A program made the translations under genes and the position numbers. Under the pieces are notes generated by a model. That model worked only from the letters and a program-made list of their open reading frames with translations. It made no database searches and was not told where the DNA came from. Shown piece after piece: positions 14,564 through 32,231 of a stretch of DNA of 64,000 nt. This DNA comes from Escherichia coli O157:H7. Its GTDB lineage: Bacteria; Pseudomonadota; Gammaproteobacteria; Enterobacterales; Enterobacteriaceae. Numbering within the stretch: the first letter of the stretch is position 1; every line of letters begins with the position of its first letter. The stretch lies in assembly GCF_013167455.1 (NCBI RefSeq), contig NZ_CP038328.1; one strand, written 5' to 3'.

Positions 14564-15463
14564 ATGAAAATCGATCTTAATCTTTTACCCATTTTTATCG
14601 CGGTAGCAGAAGAGAGTAATTTTAGTAAAGCCGCCGCACGGCTGGGCGTTACCCGTTCAGCGGTCAGTCAGGGAATAAGACGCCTTGAAGATGCATTCGG
14701 GACAATGCTTGTAATGCGGACCACGCGCTCAGTTAATTTGACAGAAGCGGGAGAACGGCTGCATAAATCGCTGTCATTACCTTTATCCGGTATTGAGGCA
14801 GCGTTCGAAGAGATGGTTTCTGACCATGTGCCACGCGGACTTCTCAGAATCGCGGTGACGTCAATAGCTGAAGAATTTCTTTCAGGTCCGCTAATCGCTT
14901 CGTTTGCAGCAGCCAATCCAGCCGTTACGCTTGATATTGTTGTCACGGATGAGGAATTCGATATCGTGGCCGCAGGTTACGATGCTGGCGTAAGGCTCGG
15001 AGAGGTCATTGAAAAAGACATGATTGCTGTGCCCCTTACCGGCAGGCAGCGTGAAATGGTCGTTGCCTCTCCCTCCTATCTCGCAGCCAACAGCACACCT
15101 GTTCATCCGCGTGAACTTGTGAATCATAAGTGTATCGGCTGGCGTCAGTCCCCGGAGGTTGCGCCTTATCGCTGGCCATTTGAAGAAAACGGGAGAGCTT
15201 TCGACCTTGCGATTGAACCGCAGATTACGACTAATGATCTGCGTCTGATGTTGAGGCTGGCTCTTGCCGGCGGAGGAATAACAATTGCCACTCAGGAAAC
15301 TTTCAGGCCGTATATTGAAAGCGGTAAGCTTGTATCTCTGCTTGATGACTTTCTTCCACAATTTCCGGGCTTCTATCTGTATTTCCCACAGCGTCGCAAT
15401 ATTGCACCAAAGCTCCGCGCTCTGATTGACCACGTTAAGGAATGGCGGCAGCAATTGGCTTAA
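14564..15463 (+). CDS. LysR-family transcriptional regulator (divergent from SDR gene)
   Basis: HTH (FSKAAARLGVTRSAVSQGIRRLEDAFGTMLVMRTTRSVNLTEAG); 299 aa; classic divergent LysR-target arrangement. Confidence 0.8.
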   Translation: MKIDLNLLPIFIAVAEESNFSKAAARLGVTRSAVSQGIRRLEDAFGTMLVMRTTRSVNLTEAGERLHKSLSLPLSGIEAAFEEMVSDHVPRGLLRIAVTSIAEEFLSGPLIASFAAANPAVTLDIVVTDEEFDIVAAGYDAGVRLGEVIEKDMIAVPLTGRQREMVVASPSYLAANSTPVHPRELVNHKCIGWRQSPEVAPYRWPFEENGRAFDLAIEPQITTNDLRLMLRLALAGGGITIATQETFRPYIESGKLVSLLDDFLPQFPGFYLYFPQRRNIAPKLRALIDHVKEWRQQLA

Positions 15464-15589
15464 ATGTCTGCACCTGCATTGCCTGATGTCAGAACAGTAT
15501 TTTGATTAATTGCCAGGGTTACAATGGCACAAATGCGGCACAGGAGGAAACGTGGTGTATTTAAATATGGGGTAACTACTTGATTTAAA

Positions 15590-15608
15590 TGGTGCGATAA
15601 TAGGAACC
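15590..15608 (-). repeat. Degenerate direct repeat of the tRNA-Thr 3' end (distal att of the P4-like island)
   Basis: TGGTGCGATAATAGGAACC matches TGGTGCCGATAATAGGAGTC at 28475 with one deletion and two mismatches. Confidence 0.45.
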
Positions 15609-16138
15609 AATAATCGCCACCAACACAATGATTTTAATACATAAATTAAAATAGAAGATTTAAACTACACACACCCCTATACACATTGGTGAAGGCGTTC
15701 GCTTTCCGCGCATTCTCAAGGCAGAAAAAACTTTTTTTGGGGGAAAACTGTTCATACTACTCATTGTGTTTTTTTTCATTAATATTCAAAAAGATATGAA
15801 ATTAACGATTGATAAGAAGTGAACACTTTACTGTTCACCTTGACTGATTAATAAGTGCATAAAAACCTAATTTTTGAGCACGGAAGGTATTTGTTCCTTA
15901 CCCCATTTTTTCTCTTTAGTCCAGTACAACAAAAAATGCGCCCAACAGAAAACTGTTTTGAATTTAAATGCAATCGCTTTGTAGTGATTGTAACGTAAGT
16001 TGATTTGATGGGTGCGATTTTGTTTAGCGATAATGGTATGTTGTAAAAATCATTTCGTTGCAATAAAATTGCATCGCTACATTTTATAGACAATATCAAT
16101 TAAATTTTAATACTCATTATTAATTTTGAGGCTAACAA

Positions 16139-17095
16139 GTGACTAGTTATTCAAACTTTTCCAATCAAATAAAAGAAACCATCAATAATAAATTCGATCA
16201 TGAAATTCATGATTGGGACATTATAAAAAACTCAATCACAACTTTAATAAATAAAAATATCCATGGTGCAGGTAGAAATATCGTTGATTTTATAGATTTA
16301 GGTAACTGGGATTTTATTTCAAACTTTTCCTTTGATGACTCTACAAGAAGACTTGAATTAGAGTGGCACCCCAATGATAAATTCCATATATATATTGAGT
16401 CCGTTGTGTTTGTCGAGTTTAATGACACTATATATGCTTTCTTAAAGGGATACTATCACAATCAGTTATCTCTAAATAGAATATATAATACAAAATGCTC
16501 TTCATGTTCATTTGAAAACTCAGGTTCTTATATGGTAGACGTTTATAGAACGGTTAAAAGAGTAAATGAGACAATCCAGACCCCAAATATAAATTGCTAT
16601 ACTACATGTATTTTAACAAGGCCCGCAAATGGTCATGTTACATCTACAGGCTTCTCACGAAACCTCATGGATGCGATAAATATTTCATTAGCAGAGCACA
16701 AAATAGCCTCTTTACATAATGAAGTCATGAGTATTGAGGAATATGATCGTGATTCTTTACAAGAGAAAGGAAATACTGCCAGGAGATATTTAGAATATAT
16801 TCTCATGCTTGTTAATATTCGTATAATGCATTTAAACAACGTTCAATACCAAGAGCAAATGCTAGGTAGTTTAGTTTCTGTTATTGAGGCTCTGGACTAT
16901 GAACCATTAATGAAAAATGATGTTGAAATTACAAAGGACATCCTTAATGCTTGCAGCCACCACGGGGGGGTTAGAATTGAAAAGAAAGATGTAATTTTTT
17001 CTTTGGAAGTTATTGAAAACTTAATTAAAGCCATAAAGAAAACCGACATAAATAAATTACAACTCGATGGGATGTTTAAATCAATTCAAAAATAA
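16139..17095 (+). CDS. Hypothetical protein, very AT-rich orphan cargo gene inside the satellite island
   Basis: 318-aa ORF with GTG start, no recognisable motif, Asn/Ile/Lys-rich; lies between the distal att repeat and the primase 3' end. Confidence 0.45.
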   Translation: MTSYSNFSNQIKETINNKFDHEIHDWDIIKNSITTLINKNIHGAGRNIVDFIDLGNWDFISNFSFDDSTRRLELEWHPNDKFHIYIESVVFVEFNDTIYAFLKGYYHNQLSLNRIYNTKCSSCSFENSGSYMVDVYRTVKRVNETIQTPNINCYTTCILTRPANGHVTSTGFSRNLMDAINISLAEHKIASLHNEVMSIEEYDRDSLQEKGNTARRYLEYILMLVNIRIMHLNNVQYQEQMLGSLVSVIEALDYEPLMKNDVEITKDILNACSHHGGVRIEKKDVIFSLEVIENLIKAIKKTDINKLQLDGMFKSIQK

Positions 17096-17227
17096 ACATC
17101 ATCTAACAATGAATTAGATGCATTTTCCGCTGACGCCTTAGCATATAACTTTTAAATTTTATCGATATATATTTTGAGATAATTTCCTGTAGCGGATTTA
17201 AGACCGGCACAGCCGGTCTTAGGTCAG

Positions 17228-19618
17228 TTATTTCGCTGCAAACTCATCGCATTTTGGCAACCAGTCAGCATTGCTTTCCTCTCTTAGGGCCAGATTAGTC
17301 TGCATTCCTTGATTGGTCCGTCGTTTCTCATACTGCAGCCCATATTCCTTGAGCATTAACGGTAGCCCCTTGCCAAACATGGTCAGACTGAGCGTATTTT
17401 TATAGCCGTTAGCCTCCATGTAGACCAGATAGGCATGGTAGAGGTAAGTTCGAGGCTGACGTGGAACAATATTAGCGTTCCCCATAAACATGCCCGTGGT
17501 GTCAGGTAGGACCTCAAGGTAGCCGCAAAAATCAAAAGCTGAATCAGCATCACGTTTGATGGTGAGCGCTTCATCGGAGTTCTGCTGTGACTGAAGCAAT
17601 GTCCTGGCACTCATTGGGTCGCTGAAACGCTGCATAAGCTGGCGAACAATCACCGCTAGCTCACTGGCAATTTTCTCTTTGAGCTGGGTATCGCGTTCCT
17701 CCGGGGCTATCTGGTCGGGGAAATGCAGGATCACCCTTCGGCGTGAAACTCCACCACTACGATCAGTGAAGCGCATCGGATTATTGTTCACAGCCAGGAT
17801 GACCGCCGGGATGTGGGTTGAATAGGCGTTCTGATATTTGGGATCAACGGATACCGCATCGCCGCCAGTGATGGCTTTTAGTCCGGCCCCGTCACCGCTC
17901 CACTTTTCCTGGTCGGGAAGTCGAATCAGTGAAAAACCTATTAACGCAGCTCGTTCTCTTGGCGACTCAAGCATTTCAATGGTTGCCGAGGTCGCGTTAT
18001 CTTCACCCGCCAGCATGGTTGCTATTTCAGCAAGAATACTCTTTCCACTTCCGCCAGGGCCAGTGACCTCCAGAAACAGCTGCCAGTCATAACGGTTAGC
18101 CAGCACCATAAACAATGCAGCCAGAATAATGTCCCGTTTTTCAGGATTAAAACCTGCGGCACGATCCAGCCAGCGCCAGAATGCCGGGGCATGGGTTTCC
18201 AGTGACTCACCGTCAACGGGCTGCGTGTAATCCACCTCGCACAGCGTACGTAACCAGTGCTTCTTATCGTGCGGGCTGAACAATCCTGTCCGGGTATCGA
18301 GCACACCGTTGCGAAATCCGATAAGTTGCCGCGCCGGATTCTGCTGTTGCGGAACGATCAGTTTGAGGGTTTCCACGAGAGACGCAATTTTCGCGGATGA
18401 AAAAGGTGCGTCGAGGCGCTGAAACAGCGCAGCGACATCACGGGCAAAATCGGCGTAATAGATAACTTTCCAGGCCCCCGCCTCATAGCGTGAAAGGAGC
18501 TGCCCGTTCGGGTCTACTGCCAGTGAATTTTTATAGTGATCCACTACCCTCTGCGCTTTTTCGCTGACGCTCAGCGCGGTAAATTCAGCTTCGCTCATTG
18601 TGTCGAAGGGGCTGGCAACAGCTGGTTTTATTACTTCATGAATTGCATGCCGGGTGGCTTCTTCGCCGTTTTGCGTGAATGCATCGTTCCAGTCACCAAA
18701 CACAGGCGGGAGCGCCATTGTGCAATTGCAGGCCCCGGTAACAGCTGCGCCCCTTGTTTGCCCCGCACCGTTGAGATCGCGGTCAGCAGCAATAATTATC
18801 TGGTGCGTTGGGTACTCACTGCAGGCAATGCTCGCCAGGGAAAGGAAATTGACGGACGAAAAGGCCACCATGACAGCATCGCCAGTCAGATAGTTGATAG
18901 TAAGTGCGGTGGCATATCCTTCCGCTATCCAGAGCCGTTTGGCTGCTTTGGCAGTACCTTCAACCAGGTAAAAGGCATTCTTAACCTGACCGCCTTTAAG
19001 GAAGCATTTGCCCCCATTAGCGTTGATTAACTGCAGATTTACCAGCTCTCCATCTGCATACAATGGAACGACAAGATCTCCCGCGCGAAATGCCACACCA
19101 CCGACTTTATGCATAGCGGTTAATTCCCGGCAAGGCAGTGCAGGAAACCCTTTACTCGTCAGATAGGCATTGCCAGTGGTCTGGCGGGACTTATCAAACA
19201 AACGGGCAGCCAGCACTGCTGCAGCTTTTCTCCCGTCCTCTTTTTCAGGAGAACCAGATTCAAGCATTCCCTGAGATACTGGCAGCAGGTTTCCGATAAT
19301 GCCGTTTATTCTGTCTGCCGCTTCACTAATGCCTACATCCAGTACTTTACTTACAAGCGCCAGGCCATCACCTGCCCCGCACTGGTTACAGAACCACGTT
19401 CCCCGCCCTTCCTGGTCATCAAATCGAAAGCGGTCTTTCCCGGCACAGACCGGGCAGGGCTGGTGCCGATTTTTCAGTACATTTACGCCCAGCGCAGGTA
19501 AAATTCTTGACCAGTGACCCCGAGCTGCTTTCTCAGCCTGGCTAACTTTCATTCCTGACATTGTGCGGCCCTCCTTAGTGCAGCGCTGGTTTGTTGAGGT
19601 GACGGGAACAAAGTTCAT
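17228..19618 (-). CDS. P4 alpha-like primase/helicase (N-terminal start uncertain)
   Basis: Zinc-binding [14 protein letters not shown]...CNQCG motif, primase/Toprim region and P-loop ([11 protein letters not shown]) in a roughly 780-aa protein. Confidence 0.85.
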
Positions 19619-19898
19619 CCATGACCGTCATTCCGAGCAGTGAGAGAACCGGACAGGCTTTAAGCGGCCCCGACTCCATCAGATCCGAAAGCAACGCGCA
19701 GGCAATTTCCAGCCCTCTTTGCTGCCCATGCTGGCGCAGATAGAACCCTTCCAGCTCGCGGGCTATGGCATCTTCAAGTTCAGCGAGCGTCAGGCCGGAA
19801 TAACGTTCCTGATGATTGCTTAGAGCCAGCCAGGCACAGGCAACGGCACGGCGATACAGAGCGGCACGAAGTGCCAGAAGAGATTCACAGCATATCAT
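19575..19898 (-). CDS. Hypothetical satellite-phage protein upstream of primase
   Basis: 107-aa ORF with start overlapping the stop of the upstream ORF; left-operon position. Confidence 0.35.
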
Positions 19899-20119
19899 CA
19901 GGCCACCTCCGCATTCATCAGGTCGTCATGGCAGCGTTGCACCACTCCATCCAGTTGCTCTGTCATCAGATAAATGAGGGAAACCAGTTGTTCGCATTGG
20001 GCACCTGCTGGCTTTTCATAACAGTCCTGCAGGGCTGCCATGCCAGTTACATACTCACCCACATTGCGTAAATGTTTCAGCCTTACAACATCGTCGTAGG
20101 AAATCTCAAACTGGTTCAT
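19898..20119 (-). CDS. Hypothetical small satellite-phage protein (epsilon-like position)
   Basis: 73-aa ORF translationally coupled to downstream ORF. Confidence 0.35.
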
Positions 20120-20669
20120 AGCGTCACCTCCCCGGCAGGCAGCCGTGCAGAAAGGGAGAGTACATAATCTCGGACTAGCAAACGGCGCGCGGAACGCTCA
20201 TCGCAGGAGACAGTGCGAAGCATACAGATGCGGGGGTGAGTGTCAGCACGGCGGATTGCGGCAAACACAAAGACATATTGCGGGTGTGACGGGGTGAGGA
20301 TTGTAGCCATGATGGCAGCCTCCAATAAGTAGCGGTTATTGCTACCACCGGAAACGCCAATTTCACTGGTGGCAGCCCGAACGGGGTTGGCGTAACCGGC
20401 CTTATTGGAAACCGGCCAGCCCGAAGGCTGCCCCGCCCGGACTACCATTATCTCGATAGAACCATGGTGTAAGCATAAACACCACAGCCCTGAAAATGGT
20501 TGTGCCTGAGCTACGACGTAAAAAAAGACGCAAGGGGCGTCAATTGTCGCCAATAAGTTATACGGAACGCCAATTCCGGCTGCCGATTTTGCGACAGCGG
20601 AAAAACTATACCTGGAAATGACGACAGTAAGCAAGCCAGAATAAAGGTATTTAATGTATGCAGGTATCA

Positions 20670-20930
20670 TCATGCATCACATCCCCGCCCACGGGCGCTG
20701 ATGCGGTCCGCCATCCATGCGCTGACCTCAGACTGTGCCCAGGCGACATTTTTACCGCCAAGCGGGATCTGCTTCGGAAACGCATCGCGGCTGATCAGGT
20801 CGTAAACGGTCGAACGGGACAACCCGCATAAGTGCATCACCTCAGGCAGGCGTAAAAATCGCTCATGATGGTTCGATACAGGAAATAATGGCGCAGCAGG
20901 AGCTGGCGCAGACACAGAAATATTACGCAT
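20670..20930 (-). CDS. alpA: AlpA-family phage transcriptional regulator / excisionase-like
   Basis: [40 protein letters not shown] matches AlpA/MerR-like HTH. Confidence 0.7.
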
Positions 20931-21863
20931 TTATCTACCCTCTTTAATTTCCACAACAGTCCGGATGAATTTATCCGGGTTCAGGTAGTTCCTTATTATG
21001 TGTATATAAACCACCTGCGCACGCATTTTTTATTTAGCGTCACATATTGATTTTATGGAATTTAAAGCCCGATTAAACCATATAAAATGACATAATAAAT
21101 ACCATGCCTGCGGACTATAAATACAGGAGCATTAATAGGAACTACCATTCACCCAGGGTTTACTATCCTATGGGTCATTGCACCTGATAGTGCTAACCCC
21201 ACCGCCAATACAGCAAGGCAGTACAACTTCTACACGAGGCCTTGCATTGCAGGCCCCAATTTCCGGGCATATTTTTGAATCGCATCCAACTTATAAACAT
21301 TGGGCCTGCATAAAAACCTTGATATTAAATAACATCACCTTAAATCGTAAAATATATCCGAATGAATCCATAAAGAACCGGACAGATCTAGTTTTATAAA
21401 AATCAGTATGAAATGCAACACCATGGCCAGAGGCGAAAATGTTATTCCCCGGCAAAAACATGCAGTCTATTTATGTGCCTGTTGAATACTCCTGAATAAG
21501 GGTGAATAGTGGTGAGGAGCAAAAAACAAATAGCTACGAGGAATAAAAAAACCACCCATTATGAAAAAATACCATAAATAATTTTATTCCCATGTGAACA
21601 GTTATGAACAGTCGATGAATACTGCCATGCCAACCCTTCACCTTATAACCTTCTGTATTACCTATTTTTTTTACCTAAGTGAATAGTAGTGAATAGTTAA
21701 GGTAAGTCTGAAACAGCCTTAGTTAAACGAGGCCTTTTCTGGCTAGCCAAAAGAGGTCCGGGGCGGTTCAGTCTTTGTCTTGTCGCTCGCACAATGGCGT
21801 TCAATGGCAGCTTTGTATGCATCACAGCACAATTGACACCACGACAAACCACTAGGTGCTGAC

Positions 21864-22616
21864 ATGACAATCCCAGAACAGAACAATAACCCGATCGTTG
21901 AAATTTCTATCCCTGTTTCGACGCAACAGGCGCTTGAGAAAGTGAATGCCACCAAATCTGCATGGCTTGAAGCACGTCGTCAGCAAAAAGCGGCAGCGGA
22001 TAATATTGCGACAATCCGCCAGCGCCGCGCTGAAATGGAAGCCACGACGAACGCCCTGAATGAGGAGTGGCGCACGCTATTTCGTGAAAGTCAGGGCGTA
22101 GTCTCAAAGGAAATGAAAAAACTGCGCACGGAAATTGCGCTGGGACGAGAAACGCTTGAGGATTTTGATGAGCTGCTGGCGGCTCAGGAAAGCGAAAATG
22201 CACTTTTGCCGCAGGAGGCTGCGGAATTAGCCGGAAAGTATATCCACGCGCACGACACCCTTGTGGGTATTCGCGCAAAACAAATCTGGGAAGATTTTAT
22301 GCAGTCGCATGGAAAAGCACTAATCCAGACACTAAGCCTGCTCAAATCAACAATGGGCAGGGAAGCCAGCGCAGTTGTCGGTGTGGTGCATTCAGTTAAT
22401 GACCCGGACACACTGCTGAAAGATTTTATTCATAAACATATCACCAGACCGGCTCTGACTAACGATGCGATGCCCGAACAGGACCCCGTGTTTAAACTGG
22501 CGGGAGTTGCCCCGGATTATGCGGCCCGTCTGGATTTCAGTAATAAACTCTCTCCAGCAGCTATGCATAAAATGAAGGTTCGTCAGGAACGTGCTGAGAA
22601 GGAGAAAGCAGTATGA
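21864..22616 (+). CDS. P4 Sid-like (capsid size determination) or Psu-family helical protein
   Basis: 250-aa strongly alpha-helical protein, first gene of the rightward satellite operon; size matches Sid. Confidence 0.4.
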   Translation: MTIPEQNNNPIVEISIPVSTQQALEKVNATKSAWLEARRQQKAAADNIATIRQRRAEMEATTNALNEEWRTLFRESQGVVSKEMKKLRTEIALGRETLEDFDELLAAQESENALLPQEAAELAGKYIHAHDTLVGIRAKQIWEDFMQSHGKALIQTLSLLKSTMGREASAVVGVVHSVNDPDTLLKDFIHKHITRPALTNDAMPEQDPVFKLAGVAPDYAARLDFSNKLSPAAMHKMKVRQERAEKEKAV

Positions 22617-23164
22617 TGGCCCGAGTCACTCCAGACCAAGCGCTTATCAGTTTTAGAAATGCCCGTATTCTGTGGGCTGGACATAGTGAGAGCCGAAAAG
22701 CCGTTGAACAACAGATAGAATCACTCCTCACTGCCATGGAAAAACCAGCAGATTATGCTCGACAGCTCGAATTACAGCGGGAACATCTGGATGTGCTGAA
22801 ATGGCAAATTAACTGTGCTGCGCGCGAATGCATTTACTCGCAGCATCAACTGATGGAGGCCTGCACAGAAGACGCTCTCAGCAATTTTATGCAGGCGAAT
22901 GGAGCAGCCCTGACATCTGCACTGGCTCCGTTCCTGAAGGGGCGCGGAGGGGTTGACGTTGCGTCCCGTATATTACGCAATGCTCTGGTTCGCCAGCTGG
23001 CAATAACACCGCCTGAAATTGCCGGGGATTATCGTATGATTCTGGATGAATCCGGTGTGATGCCTGACCCCATGATGGTTCGTGATTGCCAGAGCTCTTA
23101 CACCCCTGCACAACAACTGCGCTTTCAGCAACGTCTGGATTACATTAACGGCATGCAGGAGTAA
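22613..23164 (+). CDS. P4 Psu-like (polarity suppression) protein
   Basis: 183-aa helical protein translationally coupled to preceding gene; size and position match Psu. Confidence 0.4.
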   Translation: MMARVTPDQALISFRNARILWAGHSESRKAVEQQIESLLTAMEKPADYARQLELQREHLDVLKWQINCAARECIYSQHQLMEACTEDALSNFMQANGAALTSALAPFLKGRGGVDVASRILRNALVRQLAITPPEIAGDYRMILDESGVMPDPMMVRDCQSSYTPAQQLRFQQRLDYINGMQE

Positions 23165-23169
23165 TATTA

Positions 23170-23442
23170 ATGGCACTTAAATGTCCCGAATGCGGTACGA
23201 CGGCACACGCCAGAACCTCCGCCTATGAAGCACCATCGGTTAAACGCTCATGGTATCAGTGCCAGAATCTTGAATGTTCCTACACATTTACCGCACTGGA
23301 AAGTGTGGATACGATAATCATGAAGCCCCGGCGCAATGAACAGGAATCAGAGAAAGCACAAATGCCGGAAAAACAACAGCAAACTCTCAATCGCTATGGC
23401 TCCGCGTCAAAGCTGTCAAGCCGTCAGCAAATTCCTGTCTGA
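23170..23442 (+). CDS. Ogr/Delta-family zinc-finger late transcription activator
   Basis: CPECG...AHARTS...YQCQNLECSYTF matches the Ogr/Delta C4 zinc finger. Confidence 0.8.
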   Translation: MALKCPECGTTAHARTSAYEAPSVKRSWYQCQNLECSYTFTALESVDTIIMKPRRNEQESEKAQMPEKQQQTLNRYGSASKLSSRQQIPV

Positions 23443-23462
23443 TTAGCAAAAAAAGCCCACGT

Positions 23463-23489
23463 AATCCCGGTCCAGTACTGGGATTTTTT
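23463..23489 (+). terminator. Rho-independent terminator after the ogr/delta gene
   Basis: AATCCCGGTCCAGTACTGGGATTTTTT: GC-containing palindrome followed by T6. Confidence 0.55.
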
Positions 23490-23851
23490 ACGCCTTTTCC
23501 CTGGCTGGCCTGAGAGCGCATGAGTGCATGTCTATAGCGCATGAAAACGCATGATTCTCATGCACCATTTTTGACGCGAAAGCCCTTGTGTGGTGGCTTC
23601 TGAGACGATTTGCGGAATGCATGAAAACCAGTCTGTTAAGCGAAGCGAGCAGGCGTGGGGGGCTGCGCGCGCTAAGGGGTTAGATTATAAAATATCAAAC
23701 GCCGGTGAGATCCATTATTGTGGAACCACCCGAAGGAAGTGTAGAGGCGAAAGTACCCAAAATAATTTTGCAAATTATTTAGAAATGAACTGAGCGCTCG
23801 AAACGAAATATAATTTCGAGCACCCCAATTAGCAGTTATATTTTTAATGTA

Positions 23852-24418
23852 TTAAACAGGATAAAAACCAGAGCTTCCATTCTTATTTAAGTTATGGATT
23901 TTATTTGCATCATTAATTTTTATTTGGAACGTCGGACCTTTATTCTCAAGAATTACAATCTGGAAATTATAGTCCCTTTTGATTAATGCGTGATAAAATG
24001 AATCACTGAGACTGACGCTATTAACATCCGATAGAGAACCCCCTCTATCTTTATCAAAGTGCGTCACTAATGGACTATCAAGCACAACAAATCCAATGAA
24101 TGGATTCCCTTTTCTTGATAAAAATTCCGCAAAGCAAATGGTAAATATAGCATGCATTACTGCACGGGTACCTTTACCAAACATTCCTCGGCGTTTCCCA
24201 TTGATATTAAAGTCATATGTATCTTCGTCAAATCGCACTTTGTTATCTTTAGAATTTTCAAAATTTATATCATTCAAAAAGTCTTGCATCGCTATTTCTA
24301 TATCATACAAATCAGCTACTGTTAAGGAGTCAAAGTCCTCGGCGGAGTATTTAAGTTCGTCAACATCATCTTCTTTATCTTGTAATGAAGATAGAATGCT
24401 ATGTTTTGTGTGATCCAT
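23852..24418 (-). CDS. Cargo ORF F: C-terminal ABC/SMC-like ATPase half (signature-like motif + Walker B-like)
   Basis: GKGTRAVMHAIFTICFAEFL followed by FIGFVVLDSPLVTHFD resembles ABC signature/Walker B/D-loop; start overlaps stop of ORF E (TAATG). Confidence 0.5.
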   Translation of the reverse strand: MDHTKHSILSSLQDKEDDVDELKYSAEDFDSLTVADLYDIEIAMQDFLNDINFENSKDNKVRFDEDTYDFNINGKRRGMFGKGTRAVMHAIFTICFAEFLSRKGNPFIGFVVLDSPLVTHFDKDRGGSLSDVNSVSLSDSFYHALIKRDYNFQIVILENKGPTFQIKINDANKIHNLNKNGSSGFYPV

Positions 24419-25008
24419 TAAAAGATTGTCTTTATATTCATAAAGTGATTCAAGAGATGAATGTATTGTTTTATATTTTTATCTTCTAACGTCTTAAAAT
24501 CACTTTTTTCTGATTGATAAATTTCATTAACATCATTTTTTCTTAACATAATTAATTCATGTTCGCGAACATTAGATCCGATTGATTCAATTAATCCTTT
24601 CAGCTGGCTTTTGATTTTCAATTTTTCTGCATTACACGACAAAAAACAATCATCATATGATATTTCATTTTCTTTTTTTTGCGGTGTATTACAGAACTCA
24701 CAATAAATATCTGCAAAATTATTTAAATAGAAATTCGCCTGTGATACAACATCTATTCTTTGTAGATCTATAAAGTATTGGTCTTTAAGAAGACTAAATC
24801 TTTCAATGAGTAATGATAAGTATTTTTCCCTGTCACTGATTGAATATAATTCATCACTTAACTCTTTTAATAATTGCTTCTTATCATCAAGTGCATCAAC
24901 AATACCTTTCAATATATCTTTCGATGATTCAATATCTTGCTCTACTTTCTCAAGTTCTCTTGAAACAATGACTTGATCATATTCAGGATAAATTAATTGC
25001 GCTTTCAA
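24418..25008 (-). CDS. Cargo ORF E: coiled-coil segment, likely middle part of the same ATPase
   Basis: 196 aa, K/E/L/D-rich helical composition; only TTG start; same frame as ORF D, separated by one TAA. Confidence 0.45.
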   Translation of the reverse strand: MKAQLIYPEYDQVIVSRELEKVEQDIESSKDILKGIVDALDDKKQLLKELSDELYSISDREKYLSLLIERFSLLKDQYFIDLQRIDVVSQANFYLNNFADIYCEFCNTPQKKENEISYDDCFLSCNAEKLKIKSQLKGLIESIGSNVREHELIMLRKNDVNEIYQSEKSDFKTLEDKNIKQYIHLLNHFMNIKTIF

Positions 25009-25038
25009 TTCCTCATAAATATTTGCAATTTGATTTTT

Positions 25039-25698
25039 TTAAAAATATCTTGCTTTTTTATTTGGTTTTTCTGCTAAGGAGTTAGTATCATCTCTCTGAG
25101 TTAAAAGGAATTTAAATTCAGACTTTCTTTTTGTCTCCTCGCTAGGAATATCAGAAAGAATTAACGACTTCTCAGTTAACACTCTTAATTCATCAATACA
25201 AAAAAATTCAAAAACATTATTAAGATTAAATTTATGAAGAGTATTACTTAAGTTTGTTCTTACTTTAGCCTCTTTGAAATTCAACCTACCATAAAAGTAT
25301 GATGAAAAACTCTTTTTAGACGAAGCACTTTTGGAAAAAACCATCAACAGATTAGCTTCACTAACATTTTCAATGCTCGAATCATATAATCTGTAATGGG
25401 CGCTATCCTGAAGAGACCTCTCAATTGTCATTACCCTACCTTGAAAATTAAATTCCAGATAGGCTAAATCATAACCTTGAGCATGATCGATATCTTTATT
25501 TTTTAGTTTTTCACTCCCTAATAAATATCGAATCAAATAATATATGTATGTTTTTCCAGAGTCAGAACCACCATATAAAATAGTCAATTTAGAACCAAAT
25601 TCAATTATAGCATCTAATTTATTGAATCCGGTTACCTTTATTTTTCTGAACGTAAAAAAATTGTCATTCATAATTAAATTCCATATCATATTTGCCAA
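25039..25698 (-). CDS. Cargo ORF D: N-terminal ABC/SMC-like ATPase head (Walker A)
   Basis: FRKIKVTGFNKLDAIIEFGSKLTILYGGSDSGKTYIYYL: SMC/AAA_15-like N-terminal strand plus Walker A GxxxxGKT. Confidence 0.55.
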   Translation of the reverse strand: MANMIWNLIMNDNFFTFRKIKVTGFNKLDAIIEFGSKLTILYGGSDSGKTYIYYLIRYLLGSEKLKNKDIDHAQGYDLAYLEFNFQGRVMTIERSLQDSAHYRLYDSSIENVSEANLLMVFSKSASSKKSFSSYFYGRLNFKEAKVRTNLSNTLHKFNLNNVFEFFCIDELRVLTEKSLILSDIPSEETKRKSEFKFLLTQRDDTNSLAEKPNKKARYF

Positions 25699-26137
25699 TT
25701 TTATTTTTTATAATTGATTGCAACTGCTCATCAGGAATATCACTATATAACTTAACCACCAAATTTATATTATGCTCCATCTGCGCAACATATTCATTAT
25801 GTAGAGAATTTGTAAATGCATATGTTTTTTCAGAAGCTTTATATACAAAACCACGATGTGTATAAATTTTTGAGGCTAGTTCATAGCCTTGCAACAAAGC
25901 CAATGATTCTAAAACAATCTCTCGTTTTAGGGCTAACTGAGCATCTCTACGGGGTATTGGAGGATGAAGACTAATCTCTTCAGGTAAAAAATCCTTAAGA
26001 TTTACTAAAATAAAATCAAAACAAATAAGCCGTTCAAGGCTTAATGAAGAAGGATAAATAGCGACGAGCACTTTCGCCATTCGACATGCCACTTCTAAAC
26101 TTGAATTATAAATTCTAACCATTATCTCACCGTCCAA
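25664..26137 (-). CDS. Cargo ORF C: hypothetical protein
   Basis: 157-aa ORF, AT-rich, overlaps neighbours by 16 and 35 nt; no recognisable motif. Confidence 0.4.
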   Translation of the reverse strand: MDGEIMVRIYNSSLEVACRMAKVLVAIYPSSLSLERLICFDFILVNLKDFLPEEISLHPPIPRRDAQLALKREIVLESLALLQGYELASKIYTHRGFVYKASEKTYAFTNSLHNEYVAQMEHNINLVVKLYSDIPDEQLQSIIKNKIGKYDMEFNYE

Positions 26138-26739
26138 ATTACTTCACCATCATTAACCAAATGATGGCATATTCCTTTTTTATCATTTGCTTCACATATT
26201 TTTGATAGTACTGAATGTGCAATTGGTGTCAGAACAGCCTGCTTCAAGACTGCATTACACCTAATAAATGCATAATTATGGTCTTCATAAAAGACGGGTT
26301 CAATTGAAGATGAAATGTAACATTTCAATGCTTTGAATACATCATCTTTAAATACTTCGCGGACAAAAACCTCAAGCGAAGATGCAAAATAAAAATCATT
26401 TCTACTATTATTAAAGTGTCGTCTGTATGGATCATCAAGCTCTAAGAAAGAACTATAAGTTTTATTTCCATGCTCTGAATAGGCTTGAAGCAGTGCATTA
26501 ACATATACAGACTCTTTTTTTGAATTGTATGTTGGAATTTCATTTGGAGGGATTCTCACGACATACAGCTCGTTAAAGTACTTAAAATAAAGGTGTGTAT
26601 TTGCAATATCATTTAAAATCAATGATAAGGGTAGAGAGTAAAAAATACTAAAATCAAAATCCTCAATATATTTTTTTATTTCATCATCTAATGGAATATC
26701 AATCTTTTTAGTTATTTTTTTGAAATTGCTGAATCCCAT
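26122..26739 (-). CDS. Cargo ORF B: hypothetical protein (possibly C-terminal part of a frameshifted gene with ORF A)
   Basis: 205-aa ORF overlapping ORF A by 28 nt across an A7 homopolymer. Confidence 0.4.
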   Translation of the reverse strand: MGFSNFKKITKKIDIPLDDEIKKYIEDFDFSIFYSLPLSLILNDIANTHLYFKYFNELYVVRIPPNEIPTYNSKKESVYVNALLQAYSEHGNKTYSSFLELDDPYRRHFNNSRNDFYFASSLEVFVREVFKDDVFKALKCYISSSIEPVFYEDHNYAFIRCNAVLKQAVLTPIAHSVLSKICEANDKKGICHHLVNDGEVIWTVR

Positions 26740-27017
26740 GAATCAAGGACTGCTTTTTTAAGCTCGTTTTTATTTTTCAATAAATTAGAAAATGTAGTAG
26801 ATAAATCATAGGGTGCCACAAAAAAGTACTTCTGAGGGATGGGATAATCACCATTCAGAGTAAAATAGATAAGTTTTCCAAACTCAACTACAACATCAGA
26901 GAACCCTAAACTTTTTTTGTACAGTTTGCATTGATAATTATCCCAAGAATAACCTTCTACGTTAGGATCCGATTTATATCCAACAACGTCTCTACCTTTA
27001 TCTCCAGCTCCTCCCAA
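26712..27017 (-). CDS. Cargo ORF A: Mrr-cat-like PD-(D/E)xK nuclease motif protein (no ATG start; possibly disrupted)
   Basis: GGAGDKGRDVVGY ... YQCKLYKK resembles the Mrr catalytic motifs (GDGGIDG ... QxK); frame stays open upstream to ATG GGA TGA TGA at 27087-27098. Confidence 0.4.
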   Translation of the reverse strand: MGGAGDKGRDVVGYKSDPNVEGYSWDNYQCKLYKKSLGFSDVVVEFGKLIYFTLNGDYPIPQKYFFVAPYDLSTTFSNLLKNKNELKKAVLDSWDSAISKK

Positions 27018-27130
27018 ACGTTCGCTCCACGGGTAATCATCTGATTTACAGACAATAAGCCAATCATGGACAAATACCTCCCATGTTCATCATCCCATGT
27101 CAATATTTCCGAAAGTGGTTGAGACACAAA

Positions 27131-28312
27131 TTAACTCCTTTTTAGTCTTTCAAATATCAAATTACTGTACCAGTCCATCATAGACTTCCTTCCACTAAAA
27201 TATTGAGCATGGTTATAAGTCCCCCTAATAGAATTTTTATCTACATGAGCCAACTGGATTTCAATCCAAGCACTCTCAAAACCTTGCTCATGCAGGATTG
27301 TAGAAAGGGTATGACGAAAACCATGTCCAGTGACTTTTCCTCCATACCCAATACGCTTAATGGCTTGATTTATACTCGCTTCGCTCATTGGCCTATTCGG
27401 ATCGTTCCGCCCTGGAAAAACATAACGATAGTTCCCTGTCATGATCTTGAGTTCATTGAGTAAATCTACCGCTTGAGATGATAAGGGCACAAGATGTGGC
27501 CTACGCATTTTCATCCTTTCAGCAGGAATTTCCCAAATAGCGTTATCCAGATCAAATTCTTGCCATAATGCCGCGCGTAATTCGATGGTTCTCACACCCG
27601 TAATCATCAGTAATTTCGTGGCTATCTGGACAAGCTTACTCCCGGAGTAACCCTCTAAGGCACGTAGAAAATCAGGTATCTCATCAGCTTTTAGGAATGG
27701 GAAATGATTGGATTGGTGTACTTCGAGAGCGCTGGAGAGATCAGCCGCAGGATTGTACTCCGCCCTACCCGTTGCAATTGCGTAGCGAAACACTTCGGAG
27801 CAACGCTGCCGCACTTTGCGCATTTTCTCCAACGCACCACGTTTCTCAATTTTACGCAGAACGTTCAGCAGCTCTAGCGGTTTAATCTCTCCCACAGGCC
27901 TTGTTCCGACATAAGGAAAAATGTCGTTCTTAAACGCTTCCATGATGTCTGATGCATATCCCGCCGACCATTTAGCAGATTTAAGTTGATGCCACTCTCT
28001 GGCTATCTTTTCGAAGGCGTTCTCTGACTCTGTTTGCATAGCTAGCTTTTGCTCTTTTCGAACCTCACTAGGGTTCTTTCCTTCTGCCACAAGTTTTCGA
28101 GCTTCATCACGACGGGAACGAGCATCGGCAAGGGTGATCGTTGGGTAAACACCAAGCGAGATCATTTTGGGTTTGCCGGCATAGCGATAGCGGAACCGCC
28201 AACTCTTGCTTCCATTAGGTTCTATAAGTAATGACAACCCTAGCCCATCTCCAAATGTATAGGCTTTAGCTTCAGGCTTAGCGCGGCGAATCTGCATATC
28301 GTTTAAAGGCAT
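27131..28312 (-). CDS. int: P4-type tyrosine integrase
   Basis: N-terminal P4-integrase-like region (AKAYTFGDGLGLSLLIEPNGSKSWRFRYRYAGK); C-terminal catalytic region with RxxHGFRHT..Y residues; adjacent to tRNA-derived att. Confidence 0.85.
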   Translation of the reverse strand: MPLNDMQIRRAKPEAKAYTFGDGLGLSLLIEPNGSKSWRFRYRYAGKPKMISLGVYPTITLADARSRRDEARKLVAEGKNPSEVRKEQKLAMQTESENAFEKIAREWHQLKSAKWSAGYASDIMEAFKNDIFPYVGTRPVGEIKPLELLNVLRKIEKRGALEKMRKVRQRCSEVFRYAIATGRAEYNPAADLSSALEVHQSNHFPFLKADEIPDFLRALEGYSGSKLVQIATKLLMITGVRTIELRAALWQEFDLDNAIWEIPAERMKMRRPHLVPLSSQAVDLLNELKIMTGNYRYVFPGRNDPNRPMSEASINQAIKRIGYGGKVTGHGFRHTLSTILHEQGFESAWIEIQLAHVDKNSIRGTYNHAQYFSGRKSMMDWYSNLIFERLKRS

Positions 28313-28474
28313 GTGTATAGGAATCCAGACCGAACAGGAACATATACACAATCCTATACACATTCAGTACCGGATTCTACTGGATGGTTACGGACTACTA
28401 TGGACTTAAAAGAATAAAAAATGTTATAAATCAGAGATTTTATGGACTAATACGGACGTTTGAGGAAGTTGAGA

Positions 28475-28520
28475 TGGTGCCGATAATAGGAGTCGAACCT
28501 ACGACCTTCGCATTACGAAT
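28475..28520 (-). repeat. 46-nt 3' fragment of tRNA-Thr (thrW-like): integrase-proximal att of the P4-like island, not an intact tRNA
   Basis: Reverse complement ATTCGTAATGCGAAGGTCGTAGGTTCGACTCCTATTATCGGCACCA is the anticodon-to-CCA part of tRNA-Thr(CGU) as recalled; 5' half absent. Confidence 0.7.
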
Positions 28521-28559
28521 TATAAGAATCCGCTTCTAATTCAAAGCATTACCCCATCA

Positions 28560-29273
28560 ACACTGCGCTCACACGTCCCACCACATCAAAACATGTAAAG
28601 CCTTGCAAGCCATTGCGAGGCCTTATGTGTCTCAGTTTTGTCCCACCTTGTATTACGACTTGCATAGCCAATGAAGATAAACGTGACGACAAACGGCGCA
28701 GCAGTCTTCTTTTCTTTCACGACTTCTCCAGCATGCATACCTTTCTGCCATGACTGAAGTGAATGCCTGTTATGAGCGAGGATTGGCCCAGATGAATCGC
28801 CCTGGACTGTTGCGATCGTGAAGCCATAGACTGGGCCGCAAGCACGGGAGGTTACGATAAAGCGACAGTGCAGGATGTCATGTTAGGAGCGATAGAAAAA
28901 CGCTTTGGCGATAAAGTACCGGAACAGTCCATCCAGTGGCTGACAGATAACGGTTCAGCGTATAGAGCGCATGAAACACGGCAGTTCGCCAGAGAGTTGA
29001 ATCTGGAGCCCTGCACAACGGCAATCAGCAGTCCTCAGAGTAATGGAATTGCAGAAAGGTTCGTGAAAACGATGAAGGAAGACTATATCGCGTTCATGCC
29101 GAAACCGAATGTAAGAACGGCATTGCATAATCTTGCAGTGGCGATCGAACATTACAATGAAAACCATCCGCACAGTGCGTTGGGTTATCGCTCTCCGCGA
29201 GAATATCGACGTCAGCGGGTAACGTTAACTTAAGATACACCCCCTGTCTGGAAATAAGGGGGCAAGAACAATG
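28560..29273 (+). mobile_element. 5'-truncated IS2-like (IS3 family) element with terminal inverted repeat
   Basis: OrfB C-terminus ([21 protein letters not shown]...[14 protein letters not shown]) followed by IS2-like end TGTCTGGAAATAAGGGGGCAA; left part degenerate, starts next to tRNA fragment. Confidence 0.55.
28868..29233 (+). pseudogene. IS3-family transposase OrfB C-terminal fragment
   Basis: 121-aa ORF covering only the end of the DDE integrase core; upstream frames broken. Confidence 0.6.
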
Positions 29274-29274
29274 A

Positions 29275-30027
29275 TCAGATTCCCTGGTGAGTAAGAATTT
29301 TACTTTCTGAACTCCTCTGAGAGTATTGACTTGGAGAAACACCAAAATAACGTCTAAATACATAAGTAAAGTATGAGACACTGGCATAACCACAGACCTT
29401 AGCTACTTTACTAATAGGATAACAACGAGTGCTGAGTAAATATTCAGCCATTTGCATCCTCTCATCAAGTATGATCTTACTGAATGATACCCCCTCTTCT
29501 TTCAATTTCCTCTTTAGTAAACTTTCGCTGAGATATAATCTTGATGATATATCCTTAAGACGCCATGGTGCAGATAAATCCGTATGAATAATCGTTTTAA
29601 CTTTAGCCCCTGTGCTTTTCAAACATCCAAACAGAAATACTCCAAATTGTTTTTCAGAAGAAAATGCAGAGAGACATGTAAAAGCAATAGACTCATCAAA
29701 AATTTCTATGTATTCAGCACAGTGATTAGCCCAACTAATTAATCCTTTAATTAAACTGAAGTCAGCAAAGTTTATTTTTAAATAAGATGGATATTCCCTA
29801 CAATCAGAAATATCCCTTAAGTTATTAGCTTTCAAATAGCGACTAATAAACTCAGCGCCAAAATCCGCCACTATCACTCTTTCAGGATATGTCAGGAAAA
29901 AATCTCTAGAGCTAGAGTCGACAAGTACAGATGAACCTCTCTCCAGAAACACACTCTCTTTTCCGAAATAAACATCAAAGGACTCCAAAATCAATATAAC
30001 TGAACATGTAGTTGCCATATCATCCAC
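29275..30027 (-). CDS. AraC-family transcriptional regulator (AT-rich, horizontally acquired)
   Basis: C-terminal dual HTH region (ISKVAKVCGYASVSYFTYVFRRYFGVSPSQY); 250 aa. Confidence 0.7.
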   Translation of the reverse strand: MDDMATTCSVILILESFDVYFGKESVFLERGSSVLVDSSSRDFFLTYPERVIVADFGAEFISRYLKANNLRDISDCREYPSYLKINFADFSLIKGLISWANHCAEYIEIFDESIAFTCLSAFSSEKQFGVFLFGCLKSTGAKVKTIIHTDLSAPWRLKDISSRLYLSESLLKRKLKEEGVSFSKIILDERMQMAEYLLSTRCYPISKVAKVCGYASVSYFTYVFRRYFGVSPSQYSQRSSESKILTHQGI

Positions 30028-30746
30028 CCAATTTAACTGAAACCAGGATGAAGTATATGTATATAAAGTTCACTTTGCCAAACTTCAGTATAAAAAACCA
30101 CTAAAAATAGGGTGTGATAAAAAATACCGTAACAATAAAGCAAAGGATTATAAATTCCGTTACAGTTACAAATGATACTCAAGAAACAATTCCTTAGGAA
30201 AAACTTATTTACAGCCAATAAGTAAGACACTTATATGATATCAAGTTTTCATAAAACATAACTAGGCTAAATAGCTGCGCCTAATACCGCTACACTTTTG
30301 CCAGCCCATGTTTGCCTCCGGGTATTGACCCCTTCTCTACGCAACTTCAGTTCCCACCACCAACTTTGCGGCAGCTTTGTAGGATCAATGTCTAAAAGAA
30401 TAATGGTGACCGATAAGAAAACGACTGAATAACTGCAGATTTTCGCTCGAAACCTTCCTGTCAGATCCATAGCGAATCAAGTGCTGAATGTCACAGTATC
30501 GAACAGAAAACAGTGACGATCTAACCCTTCAAGAATATTCTACGATTGTTCTGTTTAGGAAAAGCAAGGCGGGAAGTCGGGAGATAAGTCATTGATAAAG
30601 TGGCGGAGAGAGGGGGATTTGCCCCCCCGGTAGAGTTGCCCCTACTCCGGTTTTCGAGACCGGTCCAATCATCAAACGAAACATAAAATTAATTCACATT
30701 ATGAGGAAAAGTATCTTTTTTGTACTATGTAAATTCAAAGACTTAG

Positions 30747-31616
<870 letters not shown>

Positions 31617-31676
31617 GTCTTTAAGTGATAAGCATAAACCGCAGCACGATCTTCTTGCATACGACGTGCTACGGTT

Positions 31677-32231
31677 TCATTTATCTCCGACCGGAAACTT
31701 CTTATACAGTGTCGATATACCAACATCATAGATGATCGCCACCTTTTGGCGAGGAACGCCTGATGCAATTAATCGCCCGGCCTGCGCCCATTGTTCTGGT
31801 GTAAGTTTGGGACGACGTCCACCAATTCGTCCCTGTGCGCGAGCTGCTTCCAGTCCAGCTTTTGTTCGTTCAACAATCAGTTCACGCTCCATTTCAGCCA
31901 GGGCACCCATCACATGAAAGAAAAAGCGCCCCATTGGGGTACTGGTATCAATTGAATCCGTCAGACTACGAAAGTTGATGCCTCGTTCGCGCAACTCCTC
32001 CACCAGCACGACAAGATGCCGCATACTGCGCCCCAGTCGGTCCAGTTTCCAGACCACCAGCGTGTCACCTGCCGATAATGTCCTGAGCAGCTTTTTCAGT
32101 CCTGGTCTGTCGGACTTTGTACCGCTTATCTTGTCTTCAAAAATCAGCTCACATCCTGCACACTCCAGCGCATTACGCTGTAATTCCGTATTCTGGTTAT
32201 TTGTTGATACGCGGACATAGCCAATAAGCAT
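31677..32231 (-). CDS. Serine recombinase DNA invertase (Pin/Gin/Hin family)
   Basis: MLIGYVRVSTNNQNTELQ N-terminus with catalytic serine, resolvase fold, C-terminal HTH; adjacent to inverted-repeat-flanked tail-fibre segment. Confidence 0.85.
   Translation of the reverse strand: MLIGYVRVSTNNQNTELQRNALECAGCELIFEDKISGTKSDRPGLKKLLRTLSAGDTLVVWKLDRLGRSMRHLVVLVEELRERGINFRSLTDSIDTSTPMGRFFFHVMGALAEMERELIVERTKAGLEAARAQGRIGGRRPKLTPEQWAQAGRLIASGVPRQKVAIIYDVGISTLYKKFPVGDK

Follow-up and report, generated by a model that had tools for sequence, protein, structure and literature searches.

An ISEc48 remnant in a phage-borne cassette beside the thrW attachment site of Escherichia coli O157:H7

Positions 28797-29270 of a 64,000-nt stretch of DNA from Escherichia coli O157:H7 (contig NZ_CP038328.1 of assembly GCF_013167455.1), which we refer to as the window, are very probably what is left of the 3′ part of insertion sequence ISEc48, an inert stub with the phage-cassette history proposed below. 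The comparisons presented here establish the identity of this stub, its extent, its truncation point, its context and its distribution. In itself the stub matters little, being a dead IS fragment that is an already known feature, annotated in strain Sakai as partial ISEc48. It is, in addition, a stable marker of a cassette that appears to encode the EHEC acid-resistance regulator PatE and that moves among temperate phages with different integration sites. The features of the region are listed in Table 1.

Table 1. Features of the region surrounding the ISEc48 stub, in window coordinates.
Feature	Position	Strand	Description
P4-like integrase of Sp2	27131..28363	-	Pfam Arm-DNA-bind_3, Phage_int_M and Phage_integrase; reads away from thrW′
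thrW′, 3′ 46 nt of tRNA-Thr(CGU)	28475..28520	-	exact match to FRIK944 thrW
att-proximal non-coding module of lambdoid phages (end of Sp1-type prophage)	28521..28782	+	262 nt, delimited by alignments
Junction filler TTGGCCCAGATGAA	28783..28796	.	14 nt between phage module and IS breakpoint
orfB frame remnant	28796..29233	+	145 codons and stop; preceded by in-frame TGA at 28793-28795
ISEc48 remnant (IS3 family, IS2 group)	28797..29270	+	positions 863-1336 of the 1336-bp element
Intact right inverted repeat (IRR) of ISEc48	29244..29270	+	ends ...GGGGGCAAGAACA, terminal CA; from IRL/IRR and IS2-end comparison
AraC-family regulator gene (probable patE; Z0321/ECs_0287)	29275..30027	-	Pfam HTH_AraC and HTH_18
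Right end of cassette: 278 nt of yodB-serU intergenic DNA and 3′ 66 nt of tRNA-Ser(CGA) serU	30323..30666	-	97% identity

As full-length reference for ISEc48 we used the 1336-bp copy present on plasmid pRHB38-C24_2 (L002:1639-2974). Blastn against this copy gave one gap-free match (96.8% identity, E=0) that covers the stub completely, and further plasmid copies of ISEc48 displayed 97-98.9% nucleotide identity to it. PGAP names the transposase of the full-length plasmid copies 'IS3-like element ISEc48 family transposase'. When the stub was compared with IS2A of K-12, the identity was 69.8% over 474 nt (blastn, E 3e-55). IS species are usually delimited in ISfinder practice at a nucleotide identity of about 95% or more. 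The stub lies above this boundary with respect to ISEc48 and below it with respect to IS2, and by its sequence it is assigned to the former. Protein comparisons agree with this: in frame 28796-29230, 145 aa align with OrfB of ISEc48 at 96.6% identity (tblastn, E 1e-106), and the identity to InsD of IS2 is 70.2%. In the orfB remnant Pfam detected rve (E 1.1e-11, model positions 29-102 of 102) and rve_3 (E 1.1e-16), the best NCBIfam model was 'IS2 transposase TnpB' (positions 149-289 of 301, E 4.8e-68), and the NCBIfam model for IS3 family transposases matched as well (E 1.4e-31). The homology of both transposase and terminal repeat points to descent from an element of the IS3 family, IS2 group. 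The preliminary description of this DNA had called the element IS2-like, to be checked by alignment to IS2 and abandoned if no significant similarity to IS3-family elements emerged; family and group were correct, but the species is ISEc48, to which IS2 is only about 70% identical.

The parental, full-length ISEc48 has TG...CA ends (left end TGAGCTGGCCCCC..., right end ...GGGGGCAAGAACA), encodes an HTH_Tnp_1 domain in OrfA and HTH_21, rve and rve_3 domains in OrfB, and is modelled by PGAP with a CDS of 1208 nt, not a multiple of three, that covers both frames. The catalytic triad of its OrfB consists of D1 at residue 133 (WCSDG), D2 at residue 199 (LTDNGS) and E at residue 235, with a D2-E spacing of 35 residues and a K seven residues past E. 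The stub retains 474 of the 1336 nt, the left 862 bp being gone. In agreement with the preliminary description, the element was truncated at its 5′ side by deletion and what survives of its proteins is limited to the C-terminal region of OrfB. The orfB remnant starts at about residue 150, so that D2 (LTDNGS) and E (NGIAERF) are kept with their 35-residue spacing preserved, and the triad is incomplete by the loss of D1. Complete IS3-family elements measure about 1.2-1.55 kb and have an imperfect inverted repeat at either terminus; of these two repeats the right one, ending CA, is present; it contains, at 29245-29265, the string TGTCTGGAAATAAGGGGGCAA that had been recognized earlier as an IS2-like terminal repeat. 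The element ends at 29270 (...GAACA), not at 29273 as described before, and is followed by ATGATCAG.... Neither orfA nor the N-terminus of orfB was detected by tblastn upstream of 28796, and the family's organization, with overlapping orfA and orfB joined through a programmed -1 frameshift, is lacking. Missing from the stub are IRL, orfA, the frameshift region and the orfB N-terminus with the HTH_21 region. No second ISEc48 sequence was found elsewhere in the window by blastn, and in the sampled O157 records ISEc48 occupied one place each. Deprived of its left end, of orfA and of D1, the stub is an immobile remnant, unable to transpose, and as none of the sampled O157 records contains a second ISEc48 copy, it has no cognate transposase at its disposal.

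The Sakai RefSeq record NC_002695.2 contains a repeat_region at 309849-310318, 'ISEc48 Family: IS3 partial', located inside 'prophage Sp1'; the left limit of the stub determined here extends 4 nt past this repeat_region. PGAP annotates the same stretch as a pseudogene for an N-terminally truncated 'integrase core domain-containing protein'. Many E. coli O157:H7 chromosomes contain window region 28400-29400 at 100% identity, and region 15000-32000 is collinear with Sakai over 17 kb at 99.5% identity. The PLSDB entry NZ_CP044147.1 (pAR-0428-2), a linear sequence of 46.9 kb filed as a plasmid, contains the chromosomal Sp2/Sp1 junction and the IS stub at 99.6% identity, so that in all probability a contig of the chromosome was misassigned here.

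The right end of the stub lies 4 nt from the stop codon of an AraC-family gene. This ORF comprises 250 codons, the PGAP call is 247 aa, and its best NCBIfam matches are YdeO and GadX. PatE has been described as z0321, an AraC/XylS-type regulator located on O-island 8 (OI-8) (PMC10877973), and Z0321 as 'putative regulator (prophage CP-933H)' (PMC2907692). On Sp1 of Sakai, ECs_0287 is the sole gene of AraC type, and it adjoins ECs_0288, annotated 'transposase'. This correspondence of locus tags and island, taken from the reviews, leads us to identify the gene as the probable patE. A 200-nt probe spanning the junction revealed that the IS end is attached at the same position in 655 of the 657 E. 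coli genomes that contain the 3′ end of the gene. The identity was at least 99% in 658 of 659 records, which marks the copies as very recent relatives. A chimeric query did not detect, in any of 5426 complete E. coli genomes, an ISEc48 sequence beside patE that reaches to the left of element position 846.

The stub and the AraC-family gene form, together with a serU fragment, a cassette of 1.87 kb. The cassette (28797-30662) is present at 99% identity in the viable lambdoid phages ev099 and mEp332, where it is located between the tail-fibre genes and the region containing lambda attP, int and xis, and the combination of stub and AraC gene was also found in prophages integrated at att-lambda and at argW. 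This distribution indicates that the stub arrived as phage cargo, and not as an older island edge at thrW. The truncation to position 846 at least, as seen in ev099, mEp332 and the att-lambda prophages, did not occur at the thrW locus.

Comparison of the left borders of the stub distinguished four nested truncation classes, which are possible lineage markers for tracing the spread of the cassette. Class A starts at ISEc48 position 846 and is represented by ev099, mEp332 and the att-lambda prophages; its left neighbor is the left tip, TGAATCGCCACGGG..., of a truncated IS3-family element in inverse orientation, here named ISx, before which stand the final codons of an integrase gene of the intS type. 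Class B starts at position 863, is that of this window and of at least 319 genomes, lacks ISx and has the 14-nt filler at its left. Class C starts at about position 1086 (about 213 nt left), was found in strain 103605, also at thrW, and has a variant att-proximal module as left neighbor. Class D, starting at about position 1275 (62 nt left), was found at argW in strain 673, and is preceded by a complete intS gene followed by the same ISx fragment and tip. In classes A and D the intS/ISx junction and the ISx tip are the same, letter for letter, but the tip meets ISEc48 at different positions. Such a pattern would be the outcome of adjacent deletion mediated by the IS end, or of recombination within ISx. 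Class B could be derived from an A-like ancestor. Its junction string GGATTGGCCCAGATGAA, formed by the filler with the preceding GGA, resembles the 3′ end of intS, GGATTGGCTTGATGAA, which lies to the left of the stub in the other lineages; this likeness is suggestive of an A-like ancestor, without proving it.

ISx is a second IS3-family element, with IRL TGAATCGCCACGGGTTTAACAGACACC and an OrfA beginning MSGKRYPEEFKTEAVKQVV... (MSGKRYPEEFK...), truncated to about 210 nt. Its fragments were found in loci of other genomes (L010:4422-4640, L017:2280-2486 and L021:5775-5984), and NCBIfam places the N-terminus of its OrfA in the IS3 family; matches to annotated plasmids were uninformative as to its name and permitted no finer assignment than this family. 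The full-length ISEc48 of pRHB38-C24_2 is flanked by a 15-nt direct repeat, CTGTATGAATCGCCA (L002:1624-1638 and 2975-2989), part of which is the outermost 10 nt of the left end of ISx. The target duplication of IS2 is 5 bp. That the flanking repeat is far longer than this suggests that ISEc48 inserted at or into an ISx end in that plasmid, or that a more complex event took place.

At its other end the cassette carries DNA from the serU region, which matches the serU locus of nearly every E. coli at 97% identity and sits in the prophage between patE and a GIY-YIG gene. The tRNA piece has two T-loop mismatches and breaks off at the 5′ edge of the anticodon stem. When 28300-30900 was scanned against Rfam, sub-threshold tRNA-like matches on this fragment were the only result. 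The serU piece looks like an attR with its host flank captured by aberrant excision of a phage integrated at serU. It is conceivable, though on balance doubtful, that the entire cassette is a fossil of specialised transduction, in which a serU phage took up patE together with ISEc48 and the block became a moron. If so, this moron would now circulate among lambdoid phages whose integration modules are of the thrW, att-lambda and argW types, and the IS stub with its retained IRR hairpin would form the fixed 3′ end of patE. None of the 5426 complete E. coli genomes contains the cassette contiguous with an intact serU-mtfA region. This architecture, with an IS stub at one end and a serU 3′ fragment plus 278 nt of chromosome at the other, is the only thread of the analysis that is mildly novel.

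The right end of ISEc48 was probably kept everywhere because further deletion would damage patE, 4 nt away, and be selected against. Alternatively, the CCCCCT/AGGGGG hairpin contained in IRR (GCCCCCU...AGGGGGU on the patE strand) would have been taken over by patE as its 3′ end, with a function as terminator or stabiliser of the transcript. The hairpin has 7 G+C-rich base pairs and begins 12 nt past the patE stop codon, it is retained even in the shortest stub, the 62 nt of strain 673, and the junction between IS end and patE is nearly always kept, as described above. Recent common descent and the proximity of patE explain this universal retention equally well, however, and a terminator scan did not call the hairpin, which has an 11-nt loop and no clean U tract. 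Also, the stability predicted for the folded region does not exceed that of shuffled sequence (z = 0.61). Because of the negative scan and the unexceptional fold we consider co-option unlikely, a minor rival to retention through the neighborhood of patE.

We now turn to the DNA between the stub and the tRNA fragment. In line with the preliminary description, which had recognized a tRNA-derived att, thrW′ is identical to the 3′ 46 nt of thrW. This sequence is a shared att, being attR of a 38-kb Sp1-type prophage and attL of the P4-like element Sp2. The layout of the window matches that of strain FRIK944. The order in FRIK944 is proA, thrW, the tailed prophage of about 38 kb, the 46-nt thrW fragment, the 12.9-kb P4-like Sp2 and the chromosome on the yagP side, and the + strand of the window runs in reverse of this order. 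Full thrW and the prophage integrase lie, in FRIK944, outside the window; ARAGORN found no complete tRNA in the window because full thrW is beyond its right end. The thrW 3′ end recurs a third time, in degenerate form (TGGTGCGATAATAGGA, with one base missing), at about 15588-15606; this copy marks the distal end of Sp2 and agrees with the Sp2 end coordinate 323514 of Sakai. The Sakai annotation contains Sp1 (lambda-like) and Sp2 (P4-like), with the boundary inside the thrW fragment, and names the Sp2 integrase gene intS ('prophage Sp2, P4-like phage'); Sp1 and Sp2 have been placed together at thrW before (PMC8190617). With repeated tRNA ends and integrases of their own, these are tandem integrative elements at thrW. 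The serial accretion of elements at this tRNA that had been proposed is hence real, with the 38-kb prophage and Sp2 as its products, although the IS stub does nothing to demonstrate it. In Sp2, the region at about 23850-27130 (minus strand), between the integrase gene and psu/sid-like genes, encodes proteins that PGAP names 'ABC-three component system' together with an AAA ATPase. This region is probably a hotspot of anti-phage defence, and in Sakai one part of it is annotated as pseudogene (ECs_0293).

IS homology begins sharply at 28797, 276 nt past the tRNA fragment. In region 28400-28796 blastn with word size 7 gave nothing beyond chance matches of at most 12-13 nt to ISEc48 or IS2, tblastn with all long frames of both elements as queries gave E values above 0.08 throughout, and no ORF of at least 30 aa matched a Pfam family. 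The module next to thrW′ (28521-28782) is 93% identical to the DNA beside the same 46-nt thrW fragment in an IS-free prophage of strain 2009C-3133, which carries other cargo. It is 88% identical in phage phi458, where it occurs together with the thrW fragment, and 87.6% identical in the int-att record of phage 21 and in lambda-like phages, situated past int by a few hundred nt. In a four-way alignment the sequences agree through ...TTATGAGCGAGGA (28782), after which each diverges into its own cargo. An identity of 87-93% to att-proximal DNA of prophages and phages that lack the IS means that this DNA is conserved, not degenerate, and to judge from these alignments it is the att-proximal end module of the prophage and not derived from an IS. 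Among the loci compared, the exact string of the 14-nt filler that follows it was confined to O157-type sequences.

The possibility that the 276-nt spacer is an integrase pseudogene was rejected, as it has no Pfam match, is non-coding in relatives and displays indels that are not multiples of three; the likeness to the intS 3′ end is limited to the 14-17 nt at the junction. The module is shared by lambdoid phages whose integrases differ (thrW-type, lambda-type and phage 21), and conservation is highest in its core, a terminator-like hairpin at 28600-28621 on the + strand. In the circular phage this hairpin would be situated just downstream of int across attP, and it may act as a retroregulator of the sib/tI type. 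The phi458 record (OP434518.1) contains, adjoining the thrW fragment, 482 nt (L018:73-554) matching the host chromosome at 97% identity (window 15125-15605, yagP side) and including an ORF labelled 'tail assembly protein'; this 'complete genome' apparently includes host flank from a prophage-derived assembly.

These results bear directly on a reading according to which an IS remnant of about 28560-29273, decayed beyond recognition in its upstream part and starting some 40 nt after the att, marks an older, eroded island boundary that predates the present elements at thrW. The stub is indeed only 276 nt away from a thrW-derived att, and elements are truly stacked at this tRNA. The supposed degenerate part, 28560-28796, resembles ISEc48 or IS2 neither in nucleotide nor in protein sequence, however, and consists of conserved phage att-arm DNA through 28782, which makes the fragment 237 nt shorter than claimed. 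Moreover, the cassette of stub and patE is present in viable phages and at att-lambda and argW, and Sakai has the stub inside Sp1, not at a separate boundary. The reading of an older boundary is therefore largely refuted and has very little probability left.

The results are instead consistent with the following history of the ISEc48 stub as phage cargo. A complete ISEc48 would once have inserted 4 bp downstream of the stop codon of the prophage AraC gene, probably patE. The left part of the element would then have been removed; in the visible lineages a second IS3-family element would have inserted into it, followed by deletions. All that would remain is IRR and the last 145 codons of orfB. 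From then on the stub would travel passively in the cassette, in the b-region of lambdoid phages between tail-fibre genes and attP. In this window the cassette would have come to lie in the Sp1-type prophage at thrW, with the 262-nt module and the filler separating it from the thrW att. We infer the order of these events, as well as the reason for the retention of the stub, and the original insertion is inferred rather than observed because no genome with full-length ISEc48 beside patE was found.

In Sakai, ECs_0288 corresponds to the ATG-started portion (28880-29233) of the orfB remnant, and compared with the L002 copy the remnant has four non-synonymous and ten synonymous codon differences. 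A function of the 145-codon truncated product is thus formally allowed for by its open, CDS-annotated frame. That ECs_0288 (117-145 aa) is a functional truncated transposase, kept as regulator or inhibitor of related IS2-group elements, is nevertheless extremely improbable. In its favor are the 145 codons free of stops and the CDS annotation in Sakai, ev099 and mEp332. The product has lost, however, its DNA-binding N-terminus together with D1, and a scan of the + strand revealed no promoter-like site immediately ahead of the frame. Lineages whose stub is cut back to about 213 nt or 62 nt still retain patE, which argues against selection on the ORF. The synonymous excess of 10 versus 4, being measured against active copies, reflects history before the truncation.

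Placed beside known systems, the stub resembles full-length ISEc48 in its right inverted repeat and orfB C-terminus, which have the identical layout, and differs from it by being without IRL, orfA and the first catalytic Asp. With IS2 of K-12 (IS2A, insC/insD) it shares family and group and is collinear across orfB, and the right ends are similar (TGTCTGGAAATATAGGGGCAAATCCA for IS2 and TGTCTGGAAATAAGGGGGCAAGAACA for the stub); the left end of IS2 begins with TA and that of ISEc48 with TG, as befits different IS species of about 70% identity. The serU 3′ fragment with its host flank at the right, tail-fibre-proximal end of the cassette is reminiscent of captured host DNA of the lambda-bio type, from which it differs in that the donor, patE beside intact serU, is absent from the 5426 genomes, the capture history being deduced. 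Finally, the position of the cassette in ev099 and mEp332, between the tail-fibre genes and attP/int/xis, corresponds to that of the cargo ('moron') slot in the lambda b-region.
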